DNA of 63,998 bases, filler included, from Folioceros fuciformis (Eukaryota), in assembly GCA_049999805.1 (NCBI GenBank). It is 5 parts of 5 records of this genome, joined end to end, with 100 filler letters (N's around TTAATTAATTAA, not from the genome) between each part and the next. Parts side by side here need not be neighbours in the genome. Positions count along the whole stretch, not along the records: positions 36,943 to 47,238 come from JBNGIO010004598.1; 4 more parts are not named here. The stretch is one strand, 5' to 3'. Positions within the stretch are counted from its first letter, which is position 1. Every line of letters starts with the position of its first letter. This document shows positions 29,174 through 58,823 of this stretch, piece by piece. A program made the position numbers and the translations under genes. The notes beneath the pieces were generated by a model that saw only the letters and a program-made list of their open reading frames with translations, was not told where the DNA came from and ran no database searches.

Positions 29174-29221
29174 CTAGTGTAACTCAAATACACTCTCTCC
29201 GGTAGACCAAACCGGAGAGAG
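29174..29221 (-). mobile_element. Possible Helitron 3' terminus (hairpin + CTAG)
   Basis: Perfect 11-bp stem ctctctccggt/accggagagag (29193-29221), ~15 nt from CTAG (29174-29177), at the edge of an AT-rich block; the base after CTAG is G rather than the expected T. Confidence 0.35.
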
Positions 29222-36842: not shown

Positions 36843-36942
36843 NNNNNNNNNNNNNNNNNNNNNNNNNNNNNNNNNNNNNNNNNNNNTTAATTAATTAANN
36901 NNNNNNNNNNNNNNNNNNNNNNNNNNNNNNNNNNNNNNNNNN
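36843..36942. other. Artificial contig-joining spacer
   Basis: 44 N + TTAATTAATTAA + 44 N. Confidence 0.97.
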
Positions 36943-37460
36943 GCCGCTGCGGGGTCGGAGGTGTGTAATGTTTTAGTCCTCTTCTGTGCCGTTTTGCGTT
37001 TTGTAGGTGGCAGGCTTTGCCGCGGGTGCTTGAGTACTGGGGAGCTGCTGTCGTTTCACTGTCGTGTAGGTTTTTTGTGCTTTCCTTTACGCGTATACGT
37101 TTCATTTTGAAATTGTGTTCACTGAGGCGGGTTTCCATCAAGTCCAGACTTTCTCTGCTTCCATCCTGGGAGATGGTTGATGTTCTTGGACGTTCTCCCT
37201 GGTTTTGGTGGTCTGGTGGCTGAAGGCTTTGTGCTTCGGTAGCACTAGGTTGTTTCAGCACTAGTTCGCGTCCTGGCAGGAGTCCTTTCAGGGTGTCGCG
37301 TTGGTATGTCATTTTCATTTCACTTCGTGTTGCGAGCTCACCTCATGTTGCTGTCCTTCAGGAGGGGGTGCTTGTTGTGTCCGGGGTTGTTGGGTTGGGT
37401 GGGGAGCCGGTGGTAAAATGCTACTGAGATCCGTTTGGACTTAGTGAGCATCCGGCGAGC

Positions 37461-38889
37461 ATGCCTACTGTGGGCGTAAAGCTTTCCAGCTGGCGCTACA
37501 AATTTAACCTCAAGCATTCTGTTGCTGAGAGGGATGGGAAGTATGTGAACCTGAATTTGGAACGCAGAGTTTCTCCCAATGCCTCTTTTGTGGATGGAGT
37601 TGCCACAAAAGACTGTGTTATTGATCCTGTGACGGCTCTCTCCATCCGCATATTTCTTCCTCAGAACAACCTTCAAATTGAAACAGCAGGGAATAGGGCA
37701 TTCAGTTGGCTCCCAGAAAGGGCCGTGCAGGAAGACGTTTTCTCTTACGGTCACTTAAATGGACGGAGATCTCTGGATGGTACTCCGAATGGGCGAGGTG
37801 TGGGCGGTCCTCAGAATGCATATGGAAGAGGGGTAAGTGGCATCACCAACGGGAGAGCGCGGGCAGATATGGACAAGTCGAGTGCCTTAGGAGCTTACTT
37901 TCCGAGAAGTGACGTCCAGTATGCAAAGATTCCAGTGATAGTTCAGTTCCATGACGGTGCTTTTATCAATGGCGGAAAGGACAATCCAGGAAATGACACC
38001 TTTTGTAGAAGAGTAGCTAAAGCATGTAAGAGCGTTGTCATAGCTGTAGGATATGGATTAGCACCAGAGAGCAGATATCCTGCACCCTCGCAGGACGGAG
38101 TTCTAACCCTCAAGTGGCTGGCTATGCAAGCGAACATTATCAACTGTACTCTGTCTTCAGGCATGTTCAGGTCTACTGCGGACAATTCTCTGCATTCTGC
38201 AAATGGCTTGATTGACTCCTTTGCACATATGATTGCAGACCCATGGATTGCTGCTCACGTGGACTTCTCTAGGTGTGTTACCCGTTCCTTCGGACTCTAG
38301 GCATAACGTAGCGTGCTGTCCCGCAAACTGACCAACTGATATGGTTCTTTCTGGTTGTAGATGTATGATTTTAGGTTCTGGGGCCGGAGGAAACATAGCT
38401 CAGCAGGTGACAAGGTCGGCAGTAAAACTGGGGAGGCAGCTGGAGCCTTTGAGTATTGTTGGTCAGATTCTAATATGCCCCTTTTTCGGTGGTATTCCAC
38501 CTCTTCCCTCGGAGGTTGCTCTCGCTGACACGTACTACATAGACAAAGAGACAATGCAGCTTGTGTGGAAGCTCGTGTTACCAGAAGGAGAGAACAGTCT
38601 CAATCATCCCGGAGTAGACCCCCTGCTGCCCGGTTGGGAATCGTCTTTGAGGAATATGCCTTCCTCCTTGGTGATAAGTGCGGAGCTGGACATGATGAGG
38701 GACAGGGCTGCAGCGTATGTGGAAGCTTTGAGGTCAGTGCATGTCGATGCCACTCTGGTGACGTACCGAAAGCAAGTTCATGGCTTCGCCACTATGGACT
38801 TTCTATTGAACACTAAGCCGGCCCAAGCATGTCTAGAGGATATTTCCATTTGGTTCGACAGGCGTGTGTCCCCCCAGTTTTTGAGTTAA
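37461..38889 (+). CDS. Carboxylesterase CXE11/CXE16-like alpha/beta hydrolase with altered active site; exons 37461-38272, 38361-38889 (~446 aa)
   Basis: MPTVGVKL...KFNLKH start, SFVDGVATKD, ND.FCRRVAK, AVGY.LAPESRYPA, AELDMMRDR, VHGFATMD; HGGG motif reads HDGA and GxSxG reads GSGAG. Confidence 0.88.
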
Positions 38890-40504
38890 TAAGGATCTTG
38901 TATCTAGTGTAAAGTATGTGCATACTTGCGACTGGTGCATTGCCGGTCACGTCTTTGGGACGGAATGTCTACCCCGGAACGCCTGGAAATATTTTCAGGC
39001 ATGTTCAGCGGTTCAATGTGTTTTCACTATAATTAATTCAAGAAAATATGTCTCACCTGTTCTTGCCATCGGACTGCGGCGACGCCTCATCTATGGCTCA
39101 AGCGCCACAGGCACCAAAATCTGGGCCTAAACTTCCATACTTGAAAAAAAAAAAAAAAATAAAACTTTTTTCCTAATCTCGTTACCAACCTCATCTGTAT
39201 CATTTAATTCTTAGATATATTTGATGGGTCGTTAAGTATGGAATACCATTCTCATCAAGGTCATGATCTACTAAGAACCAAAAAAAGGATTTCCTACCAG
39301 ATATAGCAAAGAAATTTTGTCACCATAGTAAAAATTTCAGTTTAGACCCTCTTGGTATTCAACCTCCCATACTTTGTATTGACAATTCCATCTATCATAG
39401 AAGTTTTCACCTACTTACAAGTGATACAACTTCTTTTTCTTCTTTGCCATCTTTAGGTTTAGGGTTCTGATAAACAATGAGCTTGTGAGTTCTCACATGG
39501 GCAAAAGAACCATATCTTTTCAGCTGTCTAAGGGAAGGGCTTCTCCTTGTCATTTCAAACTTCTACAATGAAAGTTTGTTTGCTTAGCTATTTAGAGGAA
39601 GAGCTTGTCTTTACATTGCAATAAATGTAAATAATATTGGTCTTCTAAAGGTTGTAATGTAACACCCACATCAGTATGAGGAGGAAATCCTAAACTATGG
39701 GACACTACAGAATACACAATTAGTTGCAATTAGTTGTTAATGACCAAGGTGTAGCATCATCCTCAATGCATGGCTTTATATTTGAATATATTAGATCAAA
39801 CCCAAAGTATTGTGCATGTGGACTCTCAATACACACTTGGATGCCCCAATGAGTTAGTGGTGCATACTTGTGCACAACAATGGTCTTCTATTGTGCACTT
39901 GGTTGTTCTAACAGGCTGGTGCAAAGCCTCTCAAATGTCAAAAGAGAGAAAAAAGATGGAGAAACACTAAGAACAAAATTACTAGTCCTATAATTAGTTG
40001 ATTGTGAAGGCATTCAAGGTCACTAACGTCCTTCATATCACCCCTATACATACAAAGAACCTTGCTTTTGGAACATAAAAAGGTAACATTTATATGAATG
40101 GCATACAATGGTAGGCTTTAAGTCAATATCATCACAAATTCATGCAAACTATTTTGTGCCACTTTCCAGATGAACTTTTTTGTGCAGTTCAACAAAAAAT
40201 ACCTTAAATTTTATAAATTAAGCCTATTTTAAAACATATTTTGCTTAAATTACTCTAAATTGGAAGTTGTAGATCNNNNNNNNNNNNNNNNNNNNNNNNN
40301 NNNNNNNNNNNNNNNNNNNNNNNNNNNNNNNNNNNNNNNNNNNNNNNNNNNNNNNNNNNNNNNNNNNNNNNNNNNCTACTAATTTTCAATGTTCATATTA
40401 TGTGAAAAGCTTGCAAATGGGAACATCCACGACGAAATGAAATTTCTCTCTCAACACCCATAAAATACGTTAATTGTGCACAACTATAATATGTCAACGT
40501 ATAA

Positions 40505-41000
40505 TCTTTGGGGGGCACCGCATTGCCACTCATGATGCAGTTCGGGATGTCATGTTCTCAATGGCTAGGGAGTGTGGGTTTCTTCCGTATAGGGAGCGTC
40601 CATATACTTTGCGCAATGGGGTTTCACTTAGAGCCGACCTTTTCTTCACTAGGGGAAAATAGGTTTGTGTTGCTGATGAGGTTGTTACGGATCCCACTAG
40701 GGATTTGATTTGTGAGCACGTCATCATCAACCCCCCTGGTTGGGTGGCAGAGGGTTGTGCAAGTGCCAAAGTCCATAAGTATTCTCCCTTGCAAGACGGG
40801 CATACTTTCATCCCCCTTGCTCTTAAGACACATGGAGCTATGGGCAAGGACTTTTCAAGGTTTATCAAGGAGTGCGCCAAGGTTTATCAAAGCAATAGGA
40901 ATGGTGTTCTCCCTCTTTGCTCTGTGGTGGCCTTTTGACGACGTGTATCCATTGCTCTGCAACGAGCATTGGCCAATGCAGCTTTTAGAACAGCAACAAG
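40505..41000 (+). mobile_element. 3' fragment of a non-LTR retrotransposon with restriction-like endonuclease (CRE-like)
   Basis: Translated GGHRIATHDAVRD...RADL...D.VVTDP...KVHKY...FIPLALKTHGAMG...RRVSIALQRA, with in-frame stops at ~40660 and ~40936. Confidence 0.7.
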
Positions 41001-41799
41001 CGCAAGTCAAGCAGCTTCTTCGGCACAGGTGGTAGGTAGGCCTTTTGTTATTCCACATCATGACATTTTGGGAGCAGTAGGTAGTTTTTGAAAATGATAT
41101 TTGTAGGGGAGAGTACCTTTTTTTGCCTTTGGTCCTAATGGGGTTGTTCCTCCAATCTTTGGAGTAGATGGGACTTTCCATCTCTTTTTCAATCATAGAA
41201 AATACTTCTCTTTATCTTCAACACTAAAACCTAAGATATACACAACAAGATCAATCATTATATAAGACGTAAACGTGGTGTTCATATTGTTAGGAGTTGC
41301 GACTCGTATGAACCTCATATCACACCATTGCTCATAATGCTAGGTGAGCAGAGAATTAAGGCTTCTTGCTCTTTAAACAATGACCTTCGACTATCTTCTG
41401 GTTGCAACAACCACTCATAAGGTTACATAGTGAGAAACACACAAGTCCACGTACATGTGAAGAAGGCATAGATACTAACATAGCTAGGAAATGGGTTACA
41501 TAGAACCATGACTACATGAGTATTTTTCTATGATCTCCATTGCGATCAACTGACTGGTAAGTCGTATCATGTAGATGGTTAGTGCTTCGAAGAGATGATA
41601 GTAGAAAAGCTCCAACTAGCCACCTGAATGCAAAGAGATGGAGTTGTGCTTTGTGCTCTAGTGAATATGGTGTTGAACCCAAAGATGTAAAAGGCATGAC
41701 ATCAGTTATCTTGTTCTTAGAGGTGGAACTACATAGGAGAATACCAAAGCCTCTAGTGTTCTATTGCTCTATCGTACTTAAGTAGTCATGGCAATCATA

Positions 41800-42570
41800 A
41801 TTCTTGGTTCTTATCCTTCTTGTTTCCACTTCTCCAACCACTCATGTAAAGTGTCACTCAAAACATCATGGTTTCTTGGCATGGTTTATGCTAATAGAAG
41901 TCTCTCATAAATAAGGGGCCTATTGCAGATCCTAGTCATAAGCTATCGCAATCCCTAGTAGTTGGCACACCTTGTGTTGCAAACTTGACCTATAGTGATG
42001 TAGTGTTACTTCAATAATCTCACACTCATTCCTTGGATCCCATTGTAGGGGGGCTCCATCTTCTAAGAATCCAAGCATTATGTTGACAAATGACCTTGCT
42101 AGCTCAATTTCCCTTTCCCCATCAGATGCCCCTAGTTCCTCTGCCCCAACCTCGAATTCCTCCTTAGCTCGTCCTCTTAACACTTGTCATCAAGCTTGAG
42201 GATAGTGCGTCACCATCTCCACTTGTGAAAGCTTCCCAATTAAGAGCCTCCCTCAATGAGCCTATGATCCTTACATCCACCGACAAGGCGTGTAGCTCAC
42301 CATGAAAATTCTCCATCAAAGGCCCCTAGTTCCTCTGCTTTGGCCTTGAGTTCCTCCTCAGCTTGTCCTCTTAACACTTGTCACCAAGCTCGAGGATAGT
42401 GCGTCACCATCTCCACTTGTGAAAGCTTGCCCAATTAGGAGCCTCCCTCAATTGGCCTATAATTGTCACATCCACCAACAAGACTTGTAGCTCATCATGG
42501 CAACCAGACAGACGTTTGCAGAACACTGAGCTATCCACTTTGAGTGACTCGACTCCACTAGCCATTTGGT
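41800..42570 (-). mobile_element. Highly degraded retroelement gag-like remnant with internal ~195-bp direct duplication
   Basis: Duplicated blocks at ~42130-42310 and ~42325-42500; weak gag-like peptides with many stops. Confidence 0.35.
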
Positions 42571-43419
42571 GAAGCTATATATAAGTGCATGCGCAAGGCC
42601 TCACACCCTTCCTAGCAGCTCATAGACCACTCAAACATATGAGATCCTATTAGGATCACCAAGGGGCAGTGTCGTAATTAGACATCCTCTATTCAGCACC
42701 ACAAGTGGTGCCGCTAAAAGTAAGACAACCGTAGTCCAACCTCCCTCCTACTACACGGTCACTTCAGCAAATAGGGATCAAATGTTGACCAAAATCTTGC
42801 TCTCGTTGGTCATACTCACCTCCACAACTGAATGTCTACACTCGGCCTTACTTCCTAGGCTCTCGTAAAACAACCACTCTTCATTGTGCAAGTACTTGTA
42901 ATAACTAGCATTTATTGGACAACACTCACATCCACTTGTTTGTTATAGCCTATTGATTGCTTCTTTCCCTTTTATGCCTTATGGACACGAGAGAGACACA
43001 CCTTATCCATGGCTATATCACTTGTTATGTACATCCCAAAACACAAGCACTCCCAATTCTTGCACACCCATTTCATGAGCATGCAGCTCATGCATGTGGA
43101 AACATCTTCACCCGTCACAGTGGAGCCTTTCTAGCAATAGAAATGCTTCAAATAGGCTCCACTAACTAGTTATTCCTCACGTAGCTCTAGCGGTTTGAGA
43201 TCATTGTAGCTCCTTGTTCAATGTTTCCTTGATTAAGTATAGTCCCTCCCACCTTAGTTTTAATTTTGATGTAGGCTCTGTCGTGCTTCAAGAGGTCTTG
43301 CTCCTCAACATCTGAACTTGACCCTAGAAGTCTTTGAACACTCATATATATATTATATATATAGCATGCATTGATATGAATATGGGGTGGCCAGCCCCTA
43401 TATGATATATGCATATATT

Positions 43420-43754
43420 CTTGTCAACAGTGCACCTGGATGCCTCCCCTTGAGTGCTTCCTCTCCGTCGTGCACACCAAGGCTACTGGTCATCCTGGCA
43501 CTCTTTGGTGGTTTACTACACACGAGATCGACGAAAGGAGTAGCCTATCTCTACTCCTCCTCCCTCGATGTGAGTTCAGTGATCACACTCATAATTCTTG
43601 GATGCCTCCCCTTGGATGCTTCCTCTCCGTCGTGCACACCAAGGCTACTGGTCATCCTGCCACTCTTTGGTGGTTTACTACACATGAGATCGACGAATGG
43701 AATAGCTATCCTCTACTCCTTCTCCCTTGCTGCGACACCTTCACTCCCCCCCTT
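43420..43754 (-). repeat. Polypurine tract and start of the putative 3' LTR with a 162-bp internal tandem duplication
   Basis: PPT then TG at 43743; two copies starting tggatgcctcccct at 43437 and 43599; distal LTR boundary uncertain. Confidence 0.6.
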
Positions 43755-43834
43755 AATCTGCTGACCATCTCTCGTTGGTAAGCCAGATTAACAAACTTTT
43801 CATCAACATACATACACGCTGAACATACTGCCCT

Positions 43835-44023
43835 TTACAATGTATCAACTGCTACACACATTGAACAAAACCATTGCCTATTTGGCACTACTTCTAGCAC
43901 AGGCTCTAAACAAAAAGTATGCCACCCATCATTGCACCTATCACACAACAACATGCAATGATCACCTGCAGGATCTCCACAACCTATATAAGCGAACCCC
44001 TTCCTTGGCACAAAAGCTTGCAC
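43835..44023 (-). pseudogene. PHD finger at the C-terminus of the Gypsy integrase
   Basis: YIGC..........CDRC...WHTFCL..........WFCSMC fits C4HC3; first Cys codon reads TAT. Confidence 0.85.
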
Positions 44024-44126
44024 ATCNNNNNNNNNNNNNNNNNNNNNNNNNNNNNNNNNNNNNNNNNNNNNNNNNNNNNNNNNNNNNNNNNNNNNNNNNN
44101 NNNNNNNNNNNNNNNNNNNNNNNNNN

Positions 44127-44765
44127 TATTATCCTACTCGCACTTGTATCAATTGTTGTCATCGTCTTCCTCTGCAAATATACATAATCTCCGACTTCAA
44201 ACTTTTTCACCTTAGGCCTGAAATGTCCACTTCTTGTTTCCTTGTATCTTAGCTCATCCCTATGTTGAGCTATTAACAAATTATCCATTGCCATAAGCAT
44301 TATTTTTGTAAACAACTCTGCTCTGTACGTGACTATCTTTAACCACTTATTAGGATCGTCCAAATCCACTATAGCATTCACCTTGTCTTCTAACATCCCA
44401 GATAACTGTGGTCTACGCCCAAACAACAACATGTACAGTGAAAACTTTCCCAGCGATGCTTGCCTACTCATCCTACAACCCATCGCAAGAAATGGTAACA
44501 TCCTATCCCACTCACTCTTGTCCATTACCAAACAATATTTCCTCAAAGCACTCTTACATGTCTATATCATTTTGTCTGCTAAACCATCAGCCTCCGGGTG
44601 ATTTCTTGAAGTTACCCTATGATCAATAAGGTACTCATTTAAAAATTCATCAAATTCTCCCATAAATTTAGTGCCTTGATCTATTAGAACTTCTGCACAA
44701 GCCCCAAAAACACTCAACACATGATTGAGAAATGCTTCCTTAATATCATGTGACTTTTATATATA
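44127..44765 (-). pseudogene. Gypsy integrase core/C-terminal region
   Basis: VFGACAEVLIDQGTKF, HPEADGLA, WDRMLP, LLFGRRP, FEVGDYVYL. Confidence 0.85.
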
Positions 44766-44769
44766 ACTT

Positions 44770-45830
44770 AAACTTTTTGTCCAAATTAGGTCTTGTCAAC
44801 AAGGGCTTCCTCATCAAAATGTCCTTTATCTCCTTAAATGCTCTCTGTTGATCTTCTCCCTAAACCCACAATGCATCTTTCTTTAACAACTTTGTCATTG
44901 GTTTTACCACCACGTTGTGGTTTGCCACAAAATTGCGATAATAATTCACCAATCCTAAAAAAGAACGCAAAGTCCCCAGATCAGAAGGTGGTATCATTTT
45001 TGCTATCGCTTCAACTTTATCATCAGATGGCGCCGTACCCCTAGGCACTATAAAATATCCCAAATATGCTATCTTAAAGAACCCAAACCTGCACTTTTGT
45101 GGATGACACGTCAAACCAACCTCTTTCAGTCTATCCAACACTTGCCAAACGTGCTCCTTATGTTCTTCCGCACTGCTACTAAAGGTTATTACATCATCTA
45201 TGTAACATTTGGTGAATGACAAACCTCTCAGTGCTTATCCATCGCTCCTTGAAAAGCACAAGGAGCATTCTTCAATCCAAATGGGATAACCACCCATTCC
45301 CACAAACATCTATTACCCCAAAAAGCAGTCTTCTTCTTATCCTCCTCCTCAATTTCAATTTGATTAAAGCCACCCCTCAAATCCAATGTTGATAATATAT
45401 TACATTCACCAATTGCATCAAAAATCTCCTCTGGAGTTGGCATTGGATATCTATCCATAGGCGTCACCTCATTAAGCGGTCTATAGTCACCACACATCCT
45501 CTTTTCTGTCCAATTACCATGCACATCCTTCTTTGGTGGGAGCACCATAGCTGATGCATACTCTGATTCCGAAGATCTTATCAATCCAACTTCAAGCAGC
45601 TCTTGACATTTCTTGTCCACAATCTCATTCTCCAATTTTCTCAAACGATATGGCCTTCTAAAAACCGGGTCAAAAGTTTTAAGCCGAATCTTAAACTTAG
45701 ACGTCTTGTGCCTGCCCAATTCCTTATTGGAAAAAGCAAATACCTGCCTGCTACTTTCCAAAATCCTTACAAAATCCTCCCTATCCTCCAAGGTTATCTC
45801 ATCAGAAATATCCCACTGAAAATCCATACA
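44770..45830 (-). pseudogene. Gypsy reverse transcriptase (frameshifted)
   Basis: RRPYRL, KRMCGDYRPLN, LDLRGGFNQI, KTAF, PFGLKNAP..FQ..MD, YIDDV, YLG, LRSFLGLVNYYRNFV. Confidence 0.93.
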
Positions 45831-46089
45831 CTCGTGTTTCTCACAGACGTTAACCTCACAGCTTGAGCTAGCCACATTCCCAGCTTTTCTTTCTGCATCT
45901 ACCACCTTTGCCCCATATCTCATTTGATTGCTCTACTTGCACTCATCACCTAAAACCTCATCATGCTCTCTCATTCTCTTAGTCTCCCCCCCAGCGTCTA
46001 GGCCTTCATTTCTTCTTACTTTACCCAGACTACGTCCTTCCAACCTTGTGCTTAAAATAACTTTCCACTTTCTCTTCCACTCCTGATAA

Positions 46090-47226
46090 ACCTTTATAGA
46101 CATCATAAGCCATCTGACTGTACTCAAATCCATAGCTTGTCCGAGTTTTTTATTCCTCTGCTCAAATGTTATGCCCTCCACTTGAGTAGCATTTGTATCA
46201 AAACCCATCGCCCTCTCTCTCCATAGGAGATGGCACATCCCACACCTTCCTCTTCATATCAAATATCATCCCAGGCTCTTCCCCTTTAAATGCATTGGTG
46301 CCCTCAAAACTTACAAATGTCGGTAATGCCCTCCTAAGCTCCCCCTTTTTATTTACACAATAAAAAGGCTGTCTATCATATGAAGTCACCTGCCTACTCA
46401 CTTGCCCCTCATCTAATATCTGATCAACTATTAAATCATCATCCCTTCGTCACTGACTCACAAGCATCTGCAACAAATGCCTAGGCATCATGTTATTCCA
46501 AACACAACGATGCATGTGAGCCCTAGATCCAAACTGCACTGCATCCAACTTTATAGGTTCACCCAAATAATACTTGATCTCCTCAAAATCTCGCCTCAAC
46601 ACTACTCTTCTATCCATTTGGGAATCCACATTCTCAATAAACAAACCACATTCTTTCTTCTGATGCTTTTGCACCAAATTCAAAATCCTAATTAGCTCAT
46701 AAAATAACACCAACCTATTATCCAACAAGCCTTTTCCCTTGCTTGCCATTGAATGCCCTTGACATTCCCAGCCAGCTATTATCATATCAACTTCTTCCTC
46801 CATTTGAAATTGTACCAATCCAATAAACCTAACATCTTGCGGCCAAACATAAAACGCTTGCTTCACAACTTCAACCTTTAATTGCTCAGGATACTTTTTG
46901 CATAATTTAAATACCCTTGCCTTCGCAATTGCCTGACAAACTTCATCTGGATCACAATAAATGTAACGTCTGACCACATACCCAGTAGCCAACACAGCCT
47001 CCAGACTAGATGCAATCCCAGCAAACAACTCAACCACAACCAATCCATACTTAGACGAACTCAATATCACAAGTTTATTACACACAAGTTCAAGTTTGCA
47101 AACTGCTTCCTTTGTACAAAGCTGAATTTTATCATCTAGTTGAAACTCAGTCTGTCGTTTTTCAATCTCTCTAAAAATTTCAGCTAATGCTCTACCAAAA
47201 TTTTCTCTCATTGCGATTTCCTCCAC
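46090..47226 (-). pseudogene. DNMT3-like cytosine-5 DNA methyltransferase domain within the retrotransposon pol (one stop, one frameshift)
   Basis: Motif I ELFAGI, II YCD, III QDV, IV GWECQGHS, VI FIENV, VIII DAVQFGSRAH.HR.VW.N, IX ERERAMGF, X LGQAMD; stop at 46450 and a 2-nt loss in an (AG)n run at ~46215. Confidence 0.9.
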
Positions 47227-47238
47227 TTTGTTATGACT

Positions 47239-47338
47239 NNNNNNNNNNNNNNNNNNNNNNNNNNNNNNNNNNNNNNNNNNNNTTAATTAATTAANNNNNN
47301 NNNNNNNNNNNNNNNNNNNNNNNNNNNNNNNNNNNNNN
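47239..47338. other. Artificial contig-joining spacer
   Basis: 44 N + TTAATTAATTAA + 44 N. Confidence 0.97.
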
Positions 47339-47639
47339 CTCCGGTACACCGCGTCCCTCGTAGCTCGTTGGTGCTGCCGCCGCTGAGTTGTGCTTCCGAT
47401 GTGGAGGGTTTGTGCGGGGCAGGGGTTGGGGACGGTGGGGCATGGGGATGGAGATGGATGGGCGACAGGTTTTGTATGATTTATGGCTATGAAGGCGTCT
47501 GGGAGATGAAATCGGGGTTGGGTGATGGTGTGTAGTGACGTTAGCGTGCCTAGTTTGTGGCAGATTGGAGTACTTCTCGGTACAGGGTTGCATTCTTCTG
47601 CGTCTGGTGGCGCTCCTGGGCGGCCAAAATTGAGCTAGG

Positions 47640-48960
47640 ATGACGAGTGTGCGGAAGAGTGGGAGTAAAGGGCACGAGGAGCCTAAGACGCCCCAGGAGG
47701 AGAAGGCCAAGGTACTAGATGGAGGGGATCTGTAATGGTCGGTGTTCGCTTAATTTGTGCTTGTCGCGGCCTTGTTGATTGGAGGCTTCTTCTGGTTGCC
47801 TGTTCAGGTTGACGCGTTGCGGACAGCTATTGGACCACTATCTAGGCGTTCTGCACAGTACTGTTCCGATGCTTGCTTAAGTAGGTATTTGCGGGCTCGC
47901 AATTGGAATCCCAAGAAGGCTGAAAAGATGTTAAGGGAAAGTCTAAAGTGGAGGGAGTCTTATAAGCCTGAGTCTATTCGATGGGTAAGACAGATGTCAC
48001 CTCTGGGCCTTTAGGTTCGTCCCTGCTGTCTTGGACAAGGAGCGGTGTCACGTGGGATGTGCTTCTTGTCTCTGCCTCTTCATGTTGCGTCTTCTGCTTC
48101 TTCCAGGAAGATGTCGCTGGCGAGTCGGAAACGGGAAAAGTGTACAGGTCTAGCTTTTTTGACAAGCAGGGGCGGACTGTTCTGGTCATGCGACCTGGAA
48201 ATCAGGTATGATTTTGGGGAAAAGTGCAACCAATGTAACGTGTGAATGTCGAACCCAGCGTCACCGGTTTTTTCTTTGTCTTGGCAGAACACCAATTCTC
48301 ATGACGGTCAGATCAAGCAACTTGTCTACTGTTTAGAAAATGCAATACTTAATCTTCGCGAAGGACAAGAGCAGATGGTTTGGTTGATTGACTTCAAAGG
48401 TTGGACTGTGAAGACTACCACGCCTATAAAAACAACCAGGGAGACAGCGTACATTCTGCAGAATCATTACCCGGAAAGGCTTGCTGTAGCAGTTTTGTAC
48501 AACCCTCCTAGGATTTTTGAGACCTTTTGGGCGGTAAGCTTCCTTTGCTGTTTCTATTTCGGAGGTGTTTCATCCCATGAAGACGGGACAGTAACCGTGG
48601 TAGTGCCTGCACCTGTCGCAGATTGTCAAGCCTTTCCTGGACCCAAAAACATTCCGGAAAGTGAAGTTTGTGTACACCAAGGATCCTGAGAGCCAAAAGC
48701 TGTTGGATGACCTTATTGACGCAGACAAGCTGGAAGCTGCATTTGGAGGGACAAACACTGCCACGTATTCTCATTCTGAGTATGCCAAGATGATGCGCGA
48801 AGATGATGTAAAAACAGCGCTGTATTGGAAACTGGGCACTCCTGTTGCACAACATTTGCCTGCTAACGGTGATTCCAAGTCAGAAACAGCAGTCTGGGAC
48901 GGGCAGTGTGGGGAGGTTCAAACTCCTCCAGAACATGTTGGTGTGAGTGTAAGCGCTTAA
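47640..48960 (+). CDS. Sec14/CRAL-TRIO phosphatidylinositol transfer-like protein (5 exons)
   Basis: CSDACLSRYLRARNWN..KAEKML, ETGKVYR...DKQGRTVLVMRPG, LVYCLENAI, EQMVWLIDF, LQNHYPERL, KPFLDPKT..KVKFVY. Confidence 0.92.
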
Positions 48961-49594
48961 ATTTTGTGGTTGCATAGGCGCAAGCCTGCATGCACCCGGG
49001 CTGGCATGGGCACTGTGTCATCATTTTCCGTCCGTCTTGGTACACTATATCTATGGTGGCATTCGGCACCAGAATTGAATAGGTCAAGTACTTTCTCGGG
49101 AGGCAAACTTCCAACCCTCTAGGTCTGAGGTGTGCAGATGTGCTCACGTTTAGTTCGTGAAGCGGAGTGCCCATGTGGCCAGCTACCCTTCATGCGCTGT
49201 GCATCAGCAATGAAATGGATTTCCTTGACGTATCACGATGCCTACGATTTCTCTCTGCCGTGGCTGTCCTGGGATCTGCCTCCTGTGGTCGTTTCCTGCA
49301 GAATGGACGCGTTGTGGGTCACGATCAAAAGCTCCAGCCTTTGCTGACAAGCGTTTTCGGATTCCCACGTGAAGTAAGCCTGTGAACTCTGTACCCATTG
49401 TGACCGCCATACAGCTGGTGTCGGGTGTCAGTCCATACATATCTGTCGCGCATGTCTTGGATCTCGGAACATGGACGAGACGGCTTCAGTTTTTGTACGC
49501 GCGTTGTGAAGCTTGGGATGCGATGCCAATTGTACCATGGCAGACACGCACCTAAGACGGTTATCTTGAAGTGGGAGCTCAGGATACGGGAAGC

Positions 49595-52388
49595 CATGGA
49601 GTCCAATACTGTTGCTCTTCAAGAAGCAAGCAATTCCGATGACAAGGTACTCAGCTGGTAAAAACGAACCAAATCATGTGTTCCCTTCTCCCTCTCAGTG
49701 GACGTCAATTTCTTCGGAGAACTTGTGGCCTTGGCTTTGATCTTCAACCGGGGGATGCATTCTGAAGATCTTGGACCCTCGGAATTTGTTTGTTGTCTCG
49801 TAAGTGTTCGGTTATCATATCACGATTAGCTCCCATCTCATCATCTGAGCTGATCGGTTTACAGGTTGCAGCAGCCCATGAGAACCGTGTGGAAGCACTG
49901 GAAGAGGAGCTGCAGGCCTTCCAACAGGAATTGATGGTATAATCGTGGAACTGTGACTCAGACTTTCGTTGCCCTATTGCAAAACTTGGAGTCCTCCTCT
50001 TAAGCTGTCATCGTCGATTTCAGGAACAAAGATTGAGAGTCGTGGAGCTTGCTGAAGAGAACGCAGGCCTGACTGAGGCTCTTTTCCAGCTCAAGAACCT
50101 CTACAGAGGAGCTGCTTCTGAACGGGAGCAACTTGCCAGAACCTTGGCAGCTGAGCAAAAGTGCAGCCAAGCTGCACAGTCTTCGCTGACGGAGGCACAA
50201 GCCGAGGTGCAGCATAATTGCCAGCACTCTTTCACCTGAGAAGCTGTCGGTAGGCCACCCGTATTTTCACAGTTCATGGTCACTTCTAACGATGAAATGT
50301 GTGTGACCGACAAAGGGTGGCTCATAGGCTGAGGCAGCAACGAAGGAAGCAAGAGAGAGTCGGATAGCGTTAGCACATGCCAAAGCAGAAGCGTTGGAAG
50401 TGAGGGGAGCTGCCACAGGCAAAGCTCTCGGTGAAAACGAGAGGAAAGAGCTGGAAAGGGCTCTCAAAGCCTTGTCAGCATCTGCATTGGCCGCTGCACA
50501 GGAGTCAACAAAGTGGCAGGAGATGGCACAGCAACACGAAGAGACCATCAGCAATCAAGAGAAACTTTTAGGAGCTGCCAATGATCAGCTTGTTCTTGCT
50601 TCTCAGCGTGTGACGGTAGCAGAAGCTCAGTCCTTGGAAGCGTTCAGTCAGTTAGCAAAGGTACGCTTCGCTTTGCAGCTTGACATAAGTTCACTGACAA
50701 AACAACGGGGAATCACACACTCTTTAATCCCAGGCAGAGTCTGCTTTGCAAGAGTTGTCCCAAGTGTCAGAGCGACGTGCCCGGAACTTCAATTCAGCAG
50801 TGCACGCTGCTGTCAGCAAGATTCAGAGTGTAATTCTTCGGTCCTTGACTCGCTGTTGCAAATAGGCACTATCCTGGGTTATCAGCAAGGCCCGTTCAGT
50901 GGCTGGCTAGTGTCCTACGGTGTGGGGTGTTGCTTTTGCAGGCCCTGGAAGCTGAGCTTGATGGATCACTTCAACAGATGACAGATCTTGAACTTGATCA
51001 TGCCGCTACAACCAAGGCTTTGACCGATGCAAATGTACCTGCCTTCGTATTCATATTAGGGCGGCTCCACATCATGAGAAATTAGTTTGTGGTTGGATGT
51101 AGTTGAAGTAGCCATTGCATTGACATCTTGGACGTACATCAAATCCTTAGAAGCTGACATTCAGTCCATGCAGGATGTCCTGGAAGTAAATCTCTCGGCA
51201 GCAAATACAAGGAATGCAGTATTAGAAGACAAGTTGAGAGAAAGCCAGATCCAAGTTTCACAGCTTCGAGAACGGGAGGAGTCATTGAAGAACAGCTGTG
51301 AAAGTCTGTCCCGGAAGGCAGAGGCTGCATGTGAGGTGCAAAACGATCTGGCTAGAAAGGTGAGCTACCAAACAACCTATTTCCTATGCTGCGGGGATCT
51401 TCTGCTCCAGACACTGGCCTTACTTGGGTGTCTGTACCTGAAACCAGATCCTTCGTCTAGAGGACTACTGTGAGGAGATCCTGACTTCATCACGTTCAGC
51501 ATCTCGCAATGCTGCAATGCGGGAGGTTGCTCTGGAAGAAGACCTGGCCCGTTTAAAGACGGCTGTTGCGTTGTCTCAGAGTGCAAAGGGTGTGACGATG
51601 GAGGAGTTAGCTGACACCAAAGCAACAGTGGTAACAGGCTGGTTGGTTTGCTGGGAACACGGTCGTATTCTGAAATGGTAAGTCAATCTGCTCGTACGTG
51701 CGTGTTGGTTGCGACCAGGATGCTCTCTCAGAAGAACTGGCGAAAGCAAAAGCAGAACTCAGCGTTGCGGCAACAAGAACCCTAGAAGCAGAAGCACAGC
51801 TGCGACTAAGGGAACTACAACAGGCTCAGCAGCCGAAAGAGATGACCCTGTCTTCAGCACAGGTGTCAAGTGGGACTGCAAGGCTGCATCGGCATGGAAA
51901 CGGGCTCGATGACCTCGGGCTTGAAGAAGGTCAGGAGGAGCGCTTGAAGTCGAAGGACAGCTTTAAAAAACAGGTTACGAAAATCTCCAATCAAACTACG
52001 TAGAAAGAAAAAAAATGTCCTGCTCTGATGCTCATTTATTTGCTCAACAGGTTCTTGGGGAGACCAGTTTTCTTCCCGTCACAGGTAGGCTGGCCTGGTT
52101 GCGGAGCAACTTGAGAGAGGACGAACTGCTTCTGCGTGGGCGTCTATCACCACGATCACTTCTAATTCTAGCCTACATCTTCATCCTTCACATTATTGTA
52201 AGCTCTCACACCTGGCGTGGGCTGCGGCTGCTATATTTTCCGAGTGCCTGGCAAAAAGAGGGCAGACAATGCACGGGGGCTTCACCCACGCTTGTTGAGT
52301 GCAGGTGATGGTGTCGTTTACACGAAGGACATGTCCTCCTTCTGCACGGGTTGGAGCTGAGCAGTTTATCAAGCTCCTTCCTGGCTGA
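49595..52388 (+). CDS. Long coiled-coil protein with C-terminal transmembrane anchor (golgin-like); start uncertain
   Basis: About 10 phase-compatible GT-AG exons rich in A/E/L/Q heptads, ending RSLLILAYIFILHIIVMVSF...LPG*; stop TGA 52386-52388. Confidence 0.7.
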
Positions 52389-52735
52389 TCAGTGTGCTCA
52401 ACCAGAAGCTAAACTGACGTTGGCAGGTTCCTTGGCAAGGTGCATCATGTCAAACCATCAGGCCCCTTCCTGTACAGAATATGCATGTATGTCAGACAGC
52501 TTACTTTACAAGATCCGTGGGGTCCGAAGGCTTGTGGTTCTGCGGAAAGGGGAGCTTCCGACACAGCCCACCAGATTGTTTTTCCAACTTTTTAGGCCTG
52601 ATCACTTTCTTAGCACAGTGGCTCGAAAGACAAGCCTCTTTATGACGGAGGCAGACTTTGCATGTATGTAGTGTACCTGTCTGTCAGGCTGGTCCGGACC
52701 AGCCAATGCTTTCATAGCATTCTTTTATCAAATCC

Positions 52736-54688
52736 GTGCCTTTAAAGCCTACCCTGCCTGCCGCCTTCGTACCACAAAACCCTGGCCTACCAATGTCCTA
52801 CCACGATGATTCCATACACAAAACAACCCAAAAGTTTTTTTACAATCCTTTTAAAACCATCAAAAGGTCTCAACTGAATTGTGGACCACATCTTCTGGCG
52901 AGGATATAATTTTTTTATAAATTCAGAATTCTATTAAACCAGGTACAACACGTATAGGACAAGAACAGTGTTAATTAAAGATTTTTCCTCCAATCAAAAA
53001 TCACATAAGGAATGATGTCATTGAAATTCTCATGCGTGCCTGAACATAGCATATATGTTGACACGGCCTCATTGGTTACCCTGTATATCAAAATTTTATT
53101 TTATGTTTTGATATTATTTTTAAATATGTATTATCAAAGTCTCCAAGTTTATTAGACTTCTTTTCTCCTTTTGAGAGCTACCTAGTCCCCTTCCCCTTTG
53201 GCCTTGGACCCTCCTAAAGTTGTTCCTCCTTATTCTTTTTTAGGTAGATGAAATCTTCATCTTGTAGTGAAGTATTTTTTTTCCTTATAAGTAAATTTTA
53301 TATCTTTGAATAATTATGAAAGGATTTTTTTAAGAATAATGATAATGTAAGATTCATCTCCTTGTTTCTCAAGTTGCTATTTTGAGCAACTAGTTTAAAG
53401 ACATGTGTTTAGGCTTAAGATAGATACTAGACCTTGTCTACTAGATAACTTAAAGATGATTTTTTTTTCAATTAGATTTGTCAACACAACAAAACAAGTT
53501 AAAGACTAGACCTTGTTGTCTAAATAATGCTTTTTGCTCAACATGACCTCCCAACTTTTTGAGTGATACAAGCCACATTCTCTATTGTAATGTAATGAGG
53601 TTTCACCTTTGGACTAAGATCAGTTAGTCCGATGTTAGTCCTTTAGTGTGCATGGCACACTGCTCAATGGAGTCTCTCTTTGGACTTGGACTGACCTTTT
53701 CATAGGCCAATGTTAGTTCTTCACTATCCCATGCACACTACTCATTACAGTCTCTCATTGGAGCGACATTTTCATAGGCCGATGTTAGTCCTTCATTGTC
53801 TCATTGGAGTCTCTCTTTGGACTAATATTTTCATAGGCCGATGTTATCCTTCAAGGCCCCGTGCACACTACTCATTGGAGTTTCTCTTTGGACTGACCTT
53901 TTCGTTGGGCGATATTAGTCCTTCAGACTCCCATGCACATTGCTTATTGGAGTCTCTCTTTGGAATGACCATTTCATAGGCCGATATTAGTCCTTCAGAG
54001 CACCATGCACACTAGTCACTGGAGTTTCTCTTTGGATTGACCTTTTCATAGGCCGATGTTAGTCCTTCAGAGTCCCTTGCACACTGCTCATTAAAGTCTC
54101 TCTTTGGACTGACCTTTTTATAGATTAATGTTAGTCCTTCAGACTCCCATGCACATTGCTCATTGGAGTCTCTCTTTGGACTAACCTTTAATAGGTTGAT
54201 GTTAGTCCTTCAGAGTCCCATGCACACTGCTCATTAGAGTCTCTCTTTGGACTGACCTTTNNNNNNNNNNAGTCCCATGCACACTGCTCATTAGAGTCTC
54301 TCTTTGGACTGACCTTTCATAGGTTGATGTTAGTCCTTCAGAGTCCCATGCACACTGCTCATCGGAGTCTCTCTTTGGACTGACCTTTGTCCTTCAGAGC
54401 CTCATGCATACTGCTCACTAGAGTTTCTCTTTGGACTGACCTTTTCCTTATCTAGATAGAACATATTTCTATTGTAGCTTTCGTCATTACCATATAGGAC
54501 ATAGCTCTCAATCTATGAGAATGTTGTTCAAAGATAGTACATCTACTAAGATTCACAAGTATCCATCATAAATTGATGATTCTCAACTACCTTGATGATT
54601 CTAGCAAAGATATATAGGTTCCTTTTATCAATTGTGTTGTGTTGTACTAGTGTCATAGGTAGGCTTTAAAGGTAGGCTTTAAAGGCAC
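52736..54688. mobile_element. Inverted-repeat-bounded non-coding element
   Basis: Perfect 18-bp inverted pair gtgcctttaaagcctacc (52736-52753) / ggtaggctttaaaggcac (54671-54688); no TSD seen. Confidence 0.5.
53620..54445. repeat. ~72-bp tandem repeat array (~11 copies)
   Basis: Unit gatgttagtccttcagagtcccatgcacactgctcattggagtctctctttggactgaccttttcataggcc; ttagtcc recurs at 53915, 53987, 54059, 54131, 54202. Confidence 0.92.
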
Positions 54689-55576
54689 ATATAGGTTCCA
54701 ATACATATATAGGTTGTGTTATATTGTACTTATGGTATCCCTTGTGTTGTACTTATTGCATGTAAGGAAGGAATGTGGGTAGCTCAACCTATCAAAACAA
54801 TAGTAAAATGCATAATTGCAAGAAAGAAGATTTGAGCAACTTTTGCAACGATTTTTTCTTAGCTTTTCCACAGCTCACTCCCCTCCAATCCTCCTATTCT
54901 TTGGCATCTTCTTGTAGGAGGGCATCCCCATCTTCCTTTGCACTCTCCACCTCAATAAGAACATAGGCCAAATTCGCTTACCAAGAGGTTGAACTACCTC
55001 CATTATGTGATGTACGAATGCTAGTAAGAGGTTCCAAGTTCTCCAAGTTCCTCCTAATCCTTGGTACAGAAACTCTTAGTTGCTCCTAGTGCTATATATA
55101 GTGTATGCCTCATTTTATCAACTAGTAGTAGACATTGTGGTCAGCCTCAGCAGGAAACAACTCAAGGGCTACTTACATTGAATATTGGAACACCTCCGTC
55201 CATTGTGTAGTCCACGGAATGATCTTTTGAAAGGAAGTGGAGCTCCGTCCGTTAAAAGTAGGGTTCCTCCTTACTTTTAACGAATGGAGCTTTCTATATG
55301 TCAGAGCGGCTTTCCCGTAACAGCTGACAGATGTATTTTTTTTAAGCACTCGAGATATATCTCGAGTACATGTGACCACCGACTCATCTTCTTCCTTCGC
55401 TGTTCGAGGGGGATGGTTCCTTCGCTCTTCGTTGTTTGTGCTGGACAGTGTTCTTGAAGTTGCCGAATCTGTTTCTCATGGATTCGCTGTCCCAATACAG
55501 CATGTTGGCAACGCAACTAGCACTTGTCCCAAGCGCATCAAGGTTACAAGTTTCAACAATTCATAGGCTTCAAAAC

Positions 55577-56430
55577 CAGAATGTGGCTACATGGACAGGA
55601 GATAGCACTTATGCTCTCATCTCGGCGTATGAGGAGGTGTATGTTAACCATCTTCACAAAGGGAACCTTGCCTCCCACCACTGGGATGCTATTGCACTCA
55701 AGATTTCATCCTTTTGCATGGGATTTGTGCCAACAGGTCTGCAATGTCACAACAAAATGGACTCCCTCAAGAAGCAATATAAGCAAGAGACCAAAAAGCT
55801 TGGCACAGGAGTGTATGCTTCTGAGTGGGCTTTTTAGGAAGCCTTGCATTCCTTCATGTCAGACAATCCAAAGGTGGTTGAAATGCCTAACTCACATGAC
55901 CTAGACTTTGTGGATTTAATTGAAACGCATGTTTGTGAAGATGTGGCATCTGGGATGTCTGAAGGTGTGTGTGAGTCATCACACACTCACAACCCACCAG
56001 CAAGCTCCCCTCCTGCCTCTTCTCCTCCTCCTACATTCCCACCCCTACAACTCCTGTTAGGGGCCCTACTTCTCCTTCTACATCCAAGAACAATCACTCT
56101 TGTGATTCATCTTTCACTCAAGTGACAAAGCTCAAAGGTGTTACTGCGAAGAAGGTCTCCAAGCAAGCCAAAAGGAAGCTCTCAAGTGCTGGGATATACA
56201 AGACAACTAAATCAATCAATAGCTTTGCAAAGGTGTGGGCAAGAGTTGAAGCTGTGAAGCAAGAGAACCTCCAAAGTATGGAGAGAGCAAGGTTGGAGAG
56301 CCTTCAAAACATGGAGAAAACAAGGTTAGAGCAGAGCATGAAGGTTGTTGAACTCCAACAATGCACGCAAACAGAGTTGGCCAAGCTCTTGGTACAAGCA
56401 TCCAAGCGCCCAAGGCAGGAGGAGGAGTGA
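55577..56430 (+). pseudogene. Myb/SANT-like (trihelix/MADF) DNA-binding ORF of a PIF/Harbinger transposon, degenerate
   Basis: WTGDSTYALI...HWDAIA...QCHNKMDSLKKQYK...SEWAF* followed by a coiled-coil tail; stop at 55835 and a frameshift. Confidence 0.8.
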
Positions 56431-56499
56431 TACATCAAGGGGTTCCAGCACTTGTCATAGTTTATGGTTTGTGCTAGCTATAATATTGTAAGGTTTCAC

Positions 56500-57465
56500 C
56501 ATAACTCCAAGTGCCATTCAGTCCTAAAATACAACTCACCTTGAAAAGAGCTACATACCATTATAATCCACTCATTGATCTCTACAAGCTTATGTTTTCA
56601 CATTTTCATTTGAATGAAAGATGACCTTTGAAACAGCTTCAAAATTGCAGACTTCCACATTGTTTCTTAAGTTTTGAGCAGACCTTGAAGTGCCATTCAG
56701 TCCCAACATACGATTAATCTCGAAAGGAGCTATATACCATTAAAATCCTCTCATTGTGCTCTACAATTTTGTGTTGTCAGTTTTTGATTCGGATGATCAA
56801 TGATGTCTGAAACAGCTCTGAAATTGCAGTCTTCCAAATAGTTTTTTAAGTTCTTAGCAAAAATTCAAGTGCCATTCAATCCCAACGTACGATTAATCTC
56901 AAAACGAGCTATATACCATTAGAATTCTCTCATTGTGCTCTACANNNNNNNNNNNNNNNNNNNNNNNNNNNNNNNNNNNNNNNNNNNNNNNNNNNNNNNN
57001 NNNNNNNNNNNNNNNNNNNNNNNNNNNNNNNNNNNNNNNNNNNNGCTATATACCATTAGAATTCTCTCATTGTGCTCTACAAGTTTGTGTTGTCATTTTT
57101 TCATTCGAATGATCGATGACGTCTAAAACAGCTTTGAAATTGCAAACTTCCATATAGTTTTTTAAGTTCTAAGAAAAAATTCCAGTGTCATTCAGCCCCA
57201 ACTTACGGTAACTCTCAAAATGAGCTGTATACCATTAGAATTCTCTCATTAAGCTCTACAAGCTTGTGGTGTCAGTTTTCATTGGAATGAACGATGACGT
57301 GTGAAACAGCTCCGAAATTGCAAACTTCTAAGTGAATAAGTCAGCAAATGCGTTTGTTGTTTTTGAAAGAAGTCTCTTATTAAAATCCAAAAGTGAGAAT
57401 ACGATCTTGCACAGGTAGACAAGCTGATTCTAATGGTATATAGCTCATTTCAAGATTAACCGTTG
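56500..57465. repeat. ~179-bp tandem satellite between the two Harbinger ORFs, with an inverted partial copy
   Basis: aagtgccattca recurs at ~56508, 56687, 56866 and (after a gap) ~57183; 57428-57465 is the reverse complement of the unit core (gagctatataccattagaat). Confidence 0.88.
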
Positions 57466-57503
57466 TGCAACAAAGTACATCACTCAAGCACATAAATGCA
57501 ACA

Positions 57504-58430: not shown

Positions 58431-58722
58431 TGAACGAAAAAAACTTTCGGAACCCCCATTTTGAGCGGCGGAATGAGCATGTTGTGATTTTTTTTGTGAA
58501 GGGACAGACGAATCAGCTTAGGAGGTAAATAAGACCAGGGTGTTTATGCCCAAAGTCCCTCTTGGGCTTCGGGGTTGGGATGTACTAGAGACCGGGACAA
58601 GGAGGAGGAATGAGCGAGTGCCTCCTTGCCTCTCGGGTCATTGAGAACATTAAGGACCAGGTCTGTAGGTAGGTGAGTGGGGCATGTCCTTGGCCTTTGG
58701 TGGTCCGGGGCCCCTTAGGTCT

Positions 58723-58822
58723 NNNNNNNNNNNNNNNNNNNNNNNNNNNNNNNNNNNNNNNNNNNNTTAATTAATTAANNNNNNNNNNNNNNNNNNNNNN
58801 NNNNNNNNNNNNNNNNNNNNNN
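58723..58822. other. Artificial contig-joining spacer
   Basis: 44 N + TTAATTAATTAA + 44 N. Confidence 0.97.
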
Positions 58823-58823
58823 G

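Follow-up and report, generated by a model that had tools for sequence, protein, structure and literature searches.

Retrotransposons that carry a cytosine methyltransferase (DNMT) domain of their own reverse the usual picture in which the host silences the transposon. According to the passages of PMC5890265 that deal with these elements, a Dnmt3-type domain with unpermuted motifs is present in the Pol of a long terminal repeat (LTR) Gypsy element of Klebsormidium nitens, with a Ka/Ks below 0.2, and DNMTs are also carried by DIRS and LINE elements of Symbiodinium; an earlier note on the DNA treated here had rightly named dinoflagellates and Klebsormidium as published hosts. In the yeast experiments described there, CG methylation was obtained with SymbioDIRS-Dnmt3 only, and the negative result for KnitGypsy-Dnmt3 was called inconclusive by the authors. 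The present report concerns a stretch of 63,998 bases from the assembly GCA_049999805.1 (Folioceros fuciformis), hereafter the window, in which positions 43308-47238 of the minus strand hold what is very probably a degenerate Ty3/Gypsy element with a DNMT3-type domain.

The passage of a 2026 preprint (10.64898/2026.05.21.726589) that bears on plants still gives 'streptophytes (Gypsy-DNMT3)' as the known case, and mentions DNMT4-like domains in elements of Cymbomonas and Euglena. Neumann et al. 2019 (PMC6317226), who surveyed the LTR retrotransposons of plants, use neither 'methyltransferase' nor 'PHD' in their main text (0 occurrences). No land-plant Gypsy-DNMT3 case was found in the literature searched, outside which Iyer, Abhiman and Aravind 2011, cited in PMC5890265 for the linkage of DNMT and reverse transcriptase (RT), may name further hosts; nor did that literature yield a paper treating Closterium, a retrotransposon and a DNMT together. 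The Gypsy-DNMT3 kind is already known from K. nitens, and what the present locus adds is a likely land-plant host, many copies, a subgroup with Closterium members and a larger family.

Structure of the element

The segment 43308-47238 is, with high confidence, the 3' two thirds of a dead Ty3/Gypsy element in which a DNMT3-type domain stands between protease and RT and a PHD finger follows the integrase; this confidence applies to the structure and is separate from any methylating activity. DNMT, RT, integrase and PHD finger are all encoded on the minus strand, from 47238 to 43835, in one degenerate pol frame (Table 1). The DNMT domain begins in an uninterrupted stretch of 262 residues (47238-46453), where a linker of about 65 residues precedes motif I (ELFAGI, 47031-47014) and is followed by motif IV with the catalytic Cys (GWECQ, 46773-46759), motif VI (ENV, 46635-46627) and motif VIII (GSRAHMHRCVWNN, 46530-46492). 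Beyond an in-frame TGA the same frame goes on to 46201. A frame switch falls within a CTCTCTCT run, and motif IX (RERAMGF, 46220-46200) and motif X (LGQAMD, 46145-46128) are read in the next frame, which leads through a single TAG directly into RT. Motif names and canonical order are those of C5 methyltransferases, and motifs I, IV, VI, VIII, IX and X were all found in that order, spread over two frames; with one stop and one frameshift inside it, the domain has no open reading frame (ORF).

On the 262-residue piece alone, Pfam recognised a DNA methylase domain (PF00145, E value 1e-07, 32.1 bits against a cut-off of 22), and RVT_1 was matched by the next two minus-strand pieces (1.2e-12 and 1.1e-09); the RT part has the motifs FWGN (45323-45312) and YIDD (45204-45193). 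An Atlas query with the same 262 residues returned generic DNA-methylase clusters only, one of them from a chlorophyte. The earlier note had read a full C5 methyltransferase motif set on the same strand upstream of a Gypsy RT, interrupted by a stop at 46450 and by a two-base frameshift in an AG run near 46215, and had proposed a check against PF00145; motifs, stop and frameshift were all located and the check came out above the cut-off. That this copy is dead was likewise confirmed, and it is more damaged than had been described. The RT part has a further frameshift near 45236 and a TAG at 44860-44862, the integrase part has a TAG at 44562-44564, and a deletion of about 339 codons (about 1 kb) has removed RNase H together with the zinc finger of the integrase and the first part of its core. 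The pol order expected of Ty3/Gypsy elements is present as RT before integrase in the window, where RNase H is deleted, and in full in collinear relatives.

Table 1. Positions of the element, its flank and the neighbouring gene on the third scaffold, in window coordinates (X4, presumed RNA run; P0005 and P0010, related polyproteins)
Feature	Position	Strand	Basis
Carboxylesterase gene (CXE11/16-like), intron 38270-38357	37428..38889	+	protein matches, spliced contig in X4, tree
Insertion flank	41415..43307	.	depth near the single-copy level of the carboxylesterase
Putative 3' LTR	43308..43736	-	follows purine tract, raised contig depth, unique contigs end at 43307
C-terminal PHD finger and natural stop TAA (43835-43837)	43835..44026	-	PF00628, 7.2e-09
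100-N gap inside the element	44027..44126	.	join supported by collinearity with relatives
C-terminal half of integrase core and integrase C-terminal region	44127..44756	-	rve (weak), 45% to P0005
Joint of internal deletion, about 339 codons	44757/44758	-	P0010 residues 1667-2005 without counterpart
RT and first RNase H residues	44758..45932	-	RVT_1, motifs, alignment
In-frame TAG between DNMT and RT	45933..45935	-	private to the window copy
DNMT motifs IX and X, then linker to RT (second frame)	45936..46220	-	frame reading, alignment
Dinucleotide run with frame change (frameshift within motif IX)	46213..46220	-	frame reading, contigs
DNMT target-recognition part (frame of the N-terminal part)	46222..46449	-	alignment to relatives
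In-frame TGA inside DNMT	46450..46452	-	private to the window copy (contig comparison)
DNMT N-terminal part with motifs I, IV, VI and VIII	46453..47238	-	PF00145, motif reading; upstream side ends with the scaffold

The 100-N gap inside the element is bridged by collinearity with a related polyprotein, P0005, whose residues 1570 to 1641 correspond to window positions 44142 to 43954. The PHD finger beyond the gap reaches 57-60% identity over 35-44 residues with another branch of the family, and its nearest solved relatives are those of KMT2D/KMT2C, ATXR5, KDM5A/B PHD1, BAZ2A/B, WSTF, UHRF1, CHD4, PHF21A and AIRE. Most of these fingers read unmodified histone H3 tails (H3K4me0), the state that host DNMT3 reads through its ADD domain. 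A purine-rich tract (about 43752-43737) lies just ahead of the putative 3' LTR, which holds two direct repeats of 137 nt (43437-43573 and 43599-43735) that are 90% alike.

The element has a GC content of 40% and a CpG observed/expected ratio of 0.41, with TpG in excess, and its composition and CpG ratio are like those of the window's other non-genic DNA. Over 43835-47238 the coding strand has 28.5% G against 11.4% C, the GC skew of the plus strand reaching -0.48, and the skew goes on, weaker, into the single-copy flank to about 42000. APOBEC-like editing was considered as the source of this bias and was rejected, as its direction is wrong for editing of minus-strand cDNA; the bias was taken as a compositional trait.

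The window is composed of five short scaffolds (1-27136, 27237-36842, 36943-47238, 47339-58722 and 58823-63998), parted by artificial spacers of the form N44-TTAATTAATTAA-N44 with stops in all six frames (27137-27236, 36843-36942, 47239-47338 and 58723-58822). Since these are unrelated scaffolds set end to end, adjacency across the spacers carries no meaning. The element forms the extreme end of the third scaffold (10.3 kb), which has two internal 100-N gaps (40276-40375 and 44027-44126). The window had been read at first as one piece, and 47238 as a point that long reads might cross within it; neither holds, since 47239-47338 is an artificial linker, so that the element is cut off by the scaffold end and the sequence beyond 47238 is unrelated.

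Relatives of the element

When the DNMT stretch was compared with a protein collection, 8 polyproteins of 870-1967 residues were found among the longer proteins, at 27-41% identity. A profile built from an alignment of 11 DNMT domains (A1) was then run against 1.84 billion cluster representatives and matched 11,628 of them at E <= 0.001, 2,192 at E <= 1e-10 and 514 at E <= 1e-30; the best 150 matches all lay below 1e-77, and many of them were 1000-3456 residues long. With these 514 representatives, unannotated Closterium proteins included, the family appears much larger than the literature suggests. The window's own pieces were used in BLASTP to annotate 170 relatives. DNMT follows RT or directly precedes the integrase in 88 of the 170 (RT-DNMT-integrase-PHD in 39, DNMT-integrase-PHD in 21, RT-DNMT in 13, DNMT-integrase in 10 and RT-DNMT-integrase in 5), and precedes RT in 6 (P0004, P0009, P0010, P0136, P0199 and P0203); only the DNMT part was present in 73 and only RT in 3. 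P0019, a protein from NCBI, consists of the DNMT part alone.

The arrangement in the window is matched most fully by P0010 (2324 residues), which encodes zf-CCHC, protease, DNA_methylase, RVT_1, RNase H, integrase zinc finger and rve, and which aligns in order to window positions 47070-44136, the residues lost in the internal deletion being its only unmatched part. That the DNMT belongs to a Gypsy element, as first proposed, is borne out by six intact or longer proteins in which DNMT lies directly before RT, and the refuting case in which no other copy would have DNMT fused to RT is countered by the same six, which come from elsewhere. Trees of RT and DNMT were built with FastTree, the support values of which are local only. 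In the RT tree (65 rows) the window and the six proteins with DNMT before RT form one group (support 94), and the label for domain order changes once. In the DNMT tree (164 rows) the window falls in a set of 19 (support 98), along with the six and with 12 rows whose context is unknown; this set contains 0 of the 91 rows with the other domain order. The domain thus seems to have moved once within pol, the two orders being cleanly split in both trees. Separate phylogenies of this kind had been proposed by the earlier note, and both, made from the window copy and its relatives, agree on the subgroup of the window copy. Taken together, there is good reason for confidence that the window copy is a member of a large, mostly unannotated family and belongs to its minority subgroup with DNMT before RT.

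Named members of this subgroup (four of 10 subgroup clusters checked) come from Closterium sp. NIES-65 (CAI5973665.1), NIES-53 (CAI7855100.1 and CAI7911866.1) and NIES-68 (GJP34393.1), and the NIES-53 protein has the domains zf-CCHC, protease, DNMT and RT. Closterium is a member of the Zygnematophyceae, which are usually placed as the sister class to land plants. The best identity of the window copy to any relative is 44-48%, and in RT its identity to the subgroup is only 42-48%, which argues for an old kinship and against contamination by a sampled alga. Given the Closterium relatives, a long residence of these elements in streptophytes is plausible. A PHD finger was not found in three complete subgroup proteins (P0010, P0136 and P0247); the window copy has one.

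Type of the methyltransferase domain

Compared with all solved structures, the single DNMT sequence of the window gave the catalytic domain of DNMT3A as its first match (E value 8.9e-5). The A1 profile matched the solved chains of DNMT3A (5.9e-18), DNMT3C (3.3e-16), DNMT3B (6.8e-16), tobacco DRM (NtDRM, 9e-15), Arabidopsis DRM2 (4e-11), M.HhaI (8.9e-9) and DNMT2 (4e-3); among the matches with E <= 0.01, which comprised 53 distinct sequences, there was no DNMT1 or CMT chain. The match to DNMT3A consisted of three blocks that follow one another as they do in the profile; in the DRM chains nothing but profile positions 1-133 was matched, and these lay at the C-terminus of DRM. This is the result predicted for an unpermuted domain compared with an unpermuted and a permuted one. 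An AlphaFold model made from the A1 alignment had a mean predicted local distance difference test score of 67, with 70-94 in the core, and when it was searched with Foldseek, ranks 1-48 among the matches listed were DNMT3A, 3B or 3C entries throughout.

The earlier view of the domain as DNMT3-like, with motifs unpermuted unlike those of DRM, is supported by both the profile and the model, in a comparison that covered solved structures rather than a full phylogeny. The alignment of 11 sequences shows conservation of the catalytic Cys and ENV, and also of the Arg-rich motif VIII and of motifs IX and X. PWWP and ADD domains were not found by Pfam in P0010, P0136 and P0247, and in the window the sequence ends about 65 residues before motif I.

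Host genome and state of the other copies

The identity of the host was approached through a carboxylesterase gene of two exons, which lies on the same scaffold as the element, beyond two 100-N gaps. Its first exon matched 69 proteins at E <= 1e-10, and all the named ones are from embryophytes bar one labelled Phyllobates terribilis; the best named matches were Diphasiastrum complanatum (48%), Selaginella (44%) and Marchantia MpGID1L1 (40%), and an unnamed hit reached 72%. In a maximum-likelihood tree the window gene, the unnamed protein and two lycophyte proteins (Diphasiastrum and Selaginella) form a clade with 100/100 support, apart from a Marchantia/Ceratopteris/angiosperm clade. Atlas places the gene at the level of Streptophyta only. 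The gene appears to be of land-plant type and nearest to lycophytes, which makes an embryophyte host likely, as the earlier note had supposed; this is the testimony of one gene, and paralogy could mislead.

Four sequencing runs were used, X1, X2 and X3 being DNA runs of one sample and X4 a presumed RNA run labelled as the same species. Contigs were placed on the whole scaffold at 80% likeness, and their summed depth is no copy number. Carboxylesterase contigs fitted with 0-1 mismatch in X1 and X2, at a word depth of 4.5-9.5, and a contig of X4 had the intron (GT..AG) spliced out. The flank 41177-43307, continuous with the 3' end of the element, was covered by perfect contigs at a depth of 9.2-14.5 that end at 43307. 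Over the element itself (43308-47238) the summed depth rose to 168-614 in X1 and 193-1004 in X2; it was even from integrase through RT to DNMT, with its maximum over 43479-43822, and single positions were overlapped by 4-26 different contigs. The summed depth of the family is 20 to 100 times the single-copy level. X4 gave only short, mismatched pieces on the element. A very high-copy repeat (40383-41414) on the same contig had a depth of 1830-6871 in X1/X2, no Pfam match and many rearranged joints among its copies. In the single-copy flank, about 195 nt are duplicated in tandem (42115-42499).

The depths of element and flank fit repeats of the dominant genome far better than a trace-level alga, and the family is multi-copy in the genome of this scaffold, which is most likely that of a non-seed land plant. 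The carboxylesterase had been taken as an argument against contamination. A land-plant gene is indeed present on the scaffold, but across two unbridged gaps and in a concatenated window it is a weaker argument than was held, and the read depths carry it instead. That the family was active in this genome is supported by the many diverged contigs in the runs that contain the host gene, and by the two stops private to the window copy.

Most of the damage in the DNMT domain could be compared with the other copies. Over 46450 every contig reads another letter (7 in X1, 9 in X2 and 5 in X3, all of the depth), and over 45935 another letter is read by 8 contigs in X1, 9 in X2 (all of the depth) and 12 in X3 (448.9 of 475 of the depth), so that both stops belong to the window copy alone. 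Its DNMT frameshift, in contrast, recurs in about 90% of the depth, and an extra letter at 45236 was found in one contig each of X1 and X2. Because DNMT lies upstream of RT in one frame, the shared frameshift also breaks the downstream pol, and the copies like that of the window look like a largely defective subfamily. A programmed frameshift at 46213-46220 was considered, as most copies share this state, and was judged unlikely because the shift sits within motif IX of a folded domain.

In run X3, which shares its sample with X1 and X2, C>T (321) and G>A (507) changes are in large excess, as would be expected of a library converted with bisulfite or by enzymes. Among the best-supported 40 of 1483 places, the G>A changes confined to X3 over the element number 14 and fall without exception on CHH sites of the coding strand, and in the background 325 of 470 cytosines are CHH. 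This pattern hints that the CG and CHG sites of the family are unconverted, that is, methylated.

Alternative explanations

Several points weigh against the reading of the locus as a Gypsy element with a functional methyltransferase in a land-plant genome. The Pro-Cys dipeptide of motif IV is replaced by Glu-Cys in the window, and WECQ is also the sequence in 83 of 167 relatives, the canonical WPCQ being found in 40 of 167. The one published streptophyte relative, KnitGypsy-Dnmt3, gave the negative yeast result described above. Motifs IX-X are kept in frame by two additional letters at 46212 in only 3+3+2 contigs, about 10% of the depth, and the shared frameshift argues that the DNMT has not been indispensable in this genome of late. 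As for the structure, the scaffold end at 47238 leaves the 5' LTR, gag and protease outside the window, and the 3' LTR is putative, called from depth and the purine tract only. The assignment of the host is weakened by its dependence on a single gene and by the two 100-N gaps between that gene and the element; no contig among those listed spans the gaps 40276-40375 and 44027-44126 or passes 47238.

That intact members of the family methylate DNA is possible and is put forward tentatively. The alternative that survives best, itself doubtful, is that the DNMT-like domain is a pseudo-enzyme, a module for binding DNA or RNA, or an RNA methyltransferase. The replacement of Pro by Glu in the window and in about half of the relatives, the inactivity of KnitGypsy-Dnmt3 in yeast as given in PMC5890265 and the frameshift in most copies here are points in its favour. 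On the other hand, the catalytic Cys, ENV and motifs VIII-X are retained in the 11-sequence alignment, 40 of 167 relatives keep WPCQ, and the family is large and conserved; the passages on yeast in PMC5890265 moreover credit SymbioDIRS-Dnmt3 with CG methylation.

The assembly as a whole might be algal, in which case the locus would be one more algal Gypsy-DNMT3. This is improbable. The identity of the host comes from the carboxylesterase gene, for which a word-based search may miss algal homologues and Atlas gives only Streptophyta; the named hits are nevertheless embryophyte bar one animal record, in a collection that also holds Closterium proteins, and the 100/100 grouping of the gene is with lycophytes. 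It is very improbable that the element, though real, belongs to an associated streptophyte alga (a zygnematophyte or Klebsormidium) and that the contigs of 40376-47238 were mis-scaffolded or binned with the host. The nearest named relatives, from Closterium, and the published case are algal, the link to the carboxylesterase crosses two 100-N gaps without a bridging contig, and the window was put together artificially from short scaffolds. Against this, no sampled alga is the source at a best identity of 44-48%, the depth of the flank is about that of the carboxylesterase in two runs, the depths of the family and of the repeat at 40383-41414 fit the dominant genome, and the GC content and CpG ratio of the element resemble those of the window's other non-genic DNA. 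A chance juxtaposition of a host DNMT3 pseudogene and an unrelated Gypsy fragment has next to no likelihood left and was set aside, since, for all that both parts are degenerate and only one copy lies in the window, DNMT and RT tell the same history in their trees and the same junction recurs in six independent proteins with intact frames, while motif X and RT share one frame, parted by a stop absent from other copies, and contig depth is even over DNMT, RT and integrase.

Possible function and significance

In intact elements of the preferred kind, a Gypsy lineage with a DNMT3-type domain, the DNMT would be made within Pol, between protease and RT, and would sit in the cDNA particle. It would there be placed to methylate the cDNA of the element or its fresh insertion, as de Mendoza et al. 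propose for DIRS elements in the part of PMC5890265 that treats them. The PHD finger would steer integration to chromatin without active marks, like the chromodomains of chromoviruses, and the element may in this way pair a reader of unmarked chromatin (PHD) with a writer (DNMT).

The locus suggests that a streptophyte Gypsy-DNMT3 family extends into land plants, with two domain orders. A Gypsy lineage with a DNMT3 writer and a PHD reader, inherited from the ancestor of Zygnematophyceae and land plants and perhaps still mobile in a non-seed land plant, is a larger claim and, taken as a whole, an unlikely one. If it were true, transposon-borne de novo methyltransferases could have shaped, donated to, or come from host DNMT3/DRM. 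Intact natural sequences are now in hand with which to ask about self-methylation and about the exchange of DNMT3 between host and transposon.

Other features of the window

Apart from the third scaffold, the window harbours several transposon remnants and genes. A Ty1/Copia fragment with long open frames (33929-36792, plus strand; Pol_BBD, gag_pre-integrase, rve, SH3_retrovirus and RVT_2) ends at the end of scaffold 2. A PIF/Harbinger-type pair consists of a Myb_DNA-bind_4 ORF (55376-55837, plus strand) and a DDE_Tnp_4 / Plant_tran transposase ORF (57504-58169, minus strand), with repeats of about 178 nt (56550-57328) and a 100-N gap between them. A tandem array at 53578-54444 has 9-11 copies of a unit of about 72 nt, 62-97% alike, and spans a 10-N gap. 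Multi-exon genes on other scaffolds encode an R2R3-MYB (6681-9163, minus strand), an ArfGAP (19824-22716, plus strand) and a CRAL/TRIO (Sec14-like) protein (47640-48960, plus strand). Rfam at gathering thresholds gave 0 matches in the whole window.

Comparison with known systems

KnitGypsy-Dnmt3 resembles the window copy in having an unpermuted Dnmt3-type domain in the Pol of an LTR Gypsy element of a streptophyte, as the relevant passages of PMC5890265 describe it. The host here looks embryophyte instead. The comparison is one of descriptions, as the K. nitens sequence was not among the matches identified, and where those passages describe DIRS-like repeats, the window copy has one end only. 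SymbioDIRS-Dnmt3 likewise has a Dnmt3-type domain in Pol and shows two domain orders in one host group; it differs in that its carriers are tyrosine recombinase DIRS elements of a dinoflagellate, for which the authors see an independent acquisition (the same passages of PMC5890265).

Within the family, the Closterium proteins and the metagenome polyproteins P0010, P0136, P0247, P0199 and P0009 share with the window copy the order zf-CCHC, protease, DNMT, RT, RNase H and integrase and fall in the same tree subgroup. Their RT is only 42-48% identical, their frames are intact where that of the window is broken, and their complete members are without the PHD finger. The main branch (P0003, P0005, P0008 and others) has a C-terminal PHD finger as in the window, with identities of up to 41-44% in DNMT and 45% in the integrase; its DNMT lies between RNase H and integrase rather than before RT, and both trees separate it from the subgroup of the window copy.

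Among host enzymes, animal DNMT3A/3B/3C are the best match in both sequence and fold and are alike in motif order. The identity is about 25%, PWWP and ADD domains were not seen in the elements, Glu stands in the place of Pro, and the domain here is in a polyprotein context. Chromoviruses have a chromatin-reader domain at the C-terminus of the integrase, as in the window, which would suggest a role for it in the choice of insertion site; theirs is a chromodomain, whereas the element described here has a PHD finger, and a DNMT writer domain in addition.

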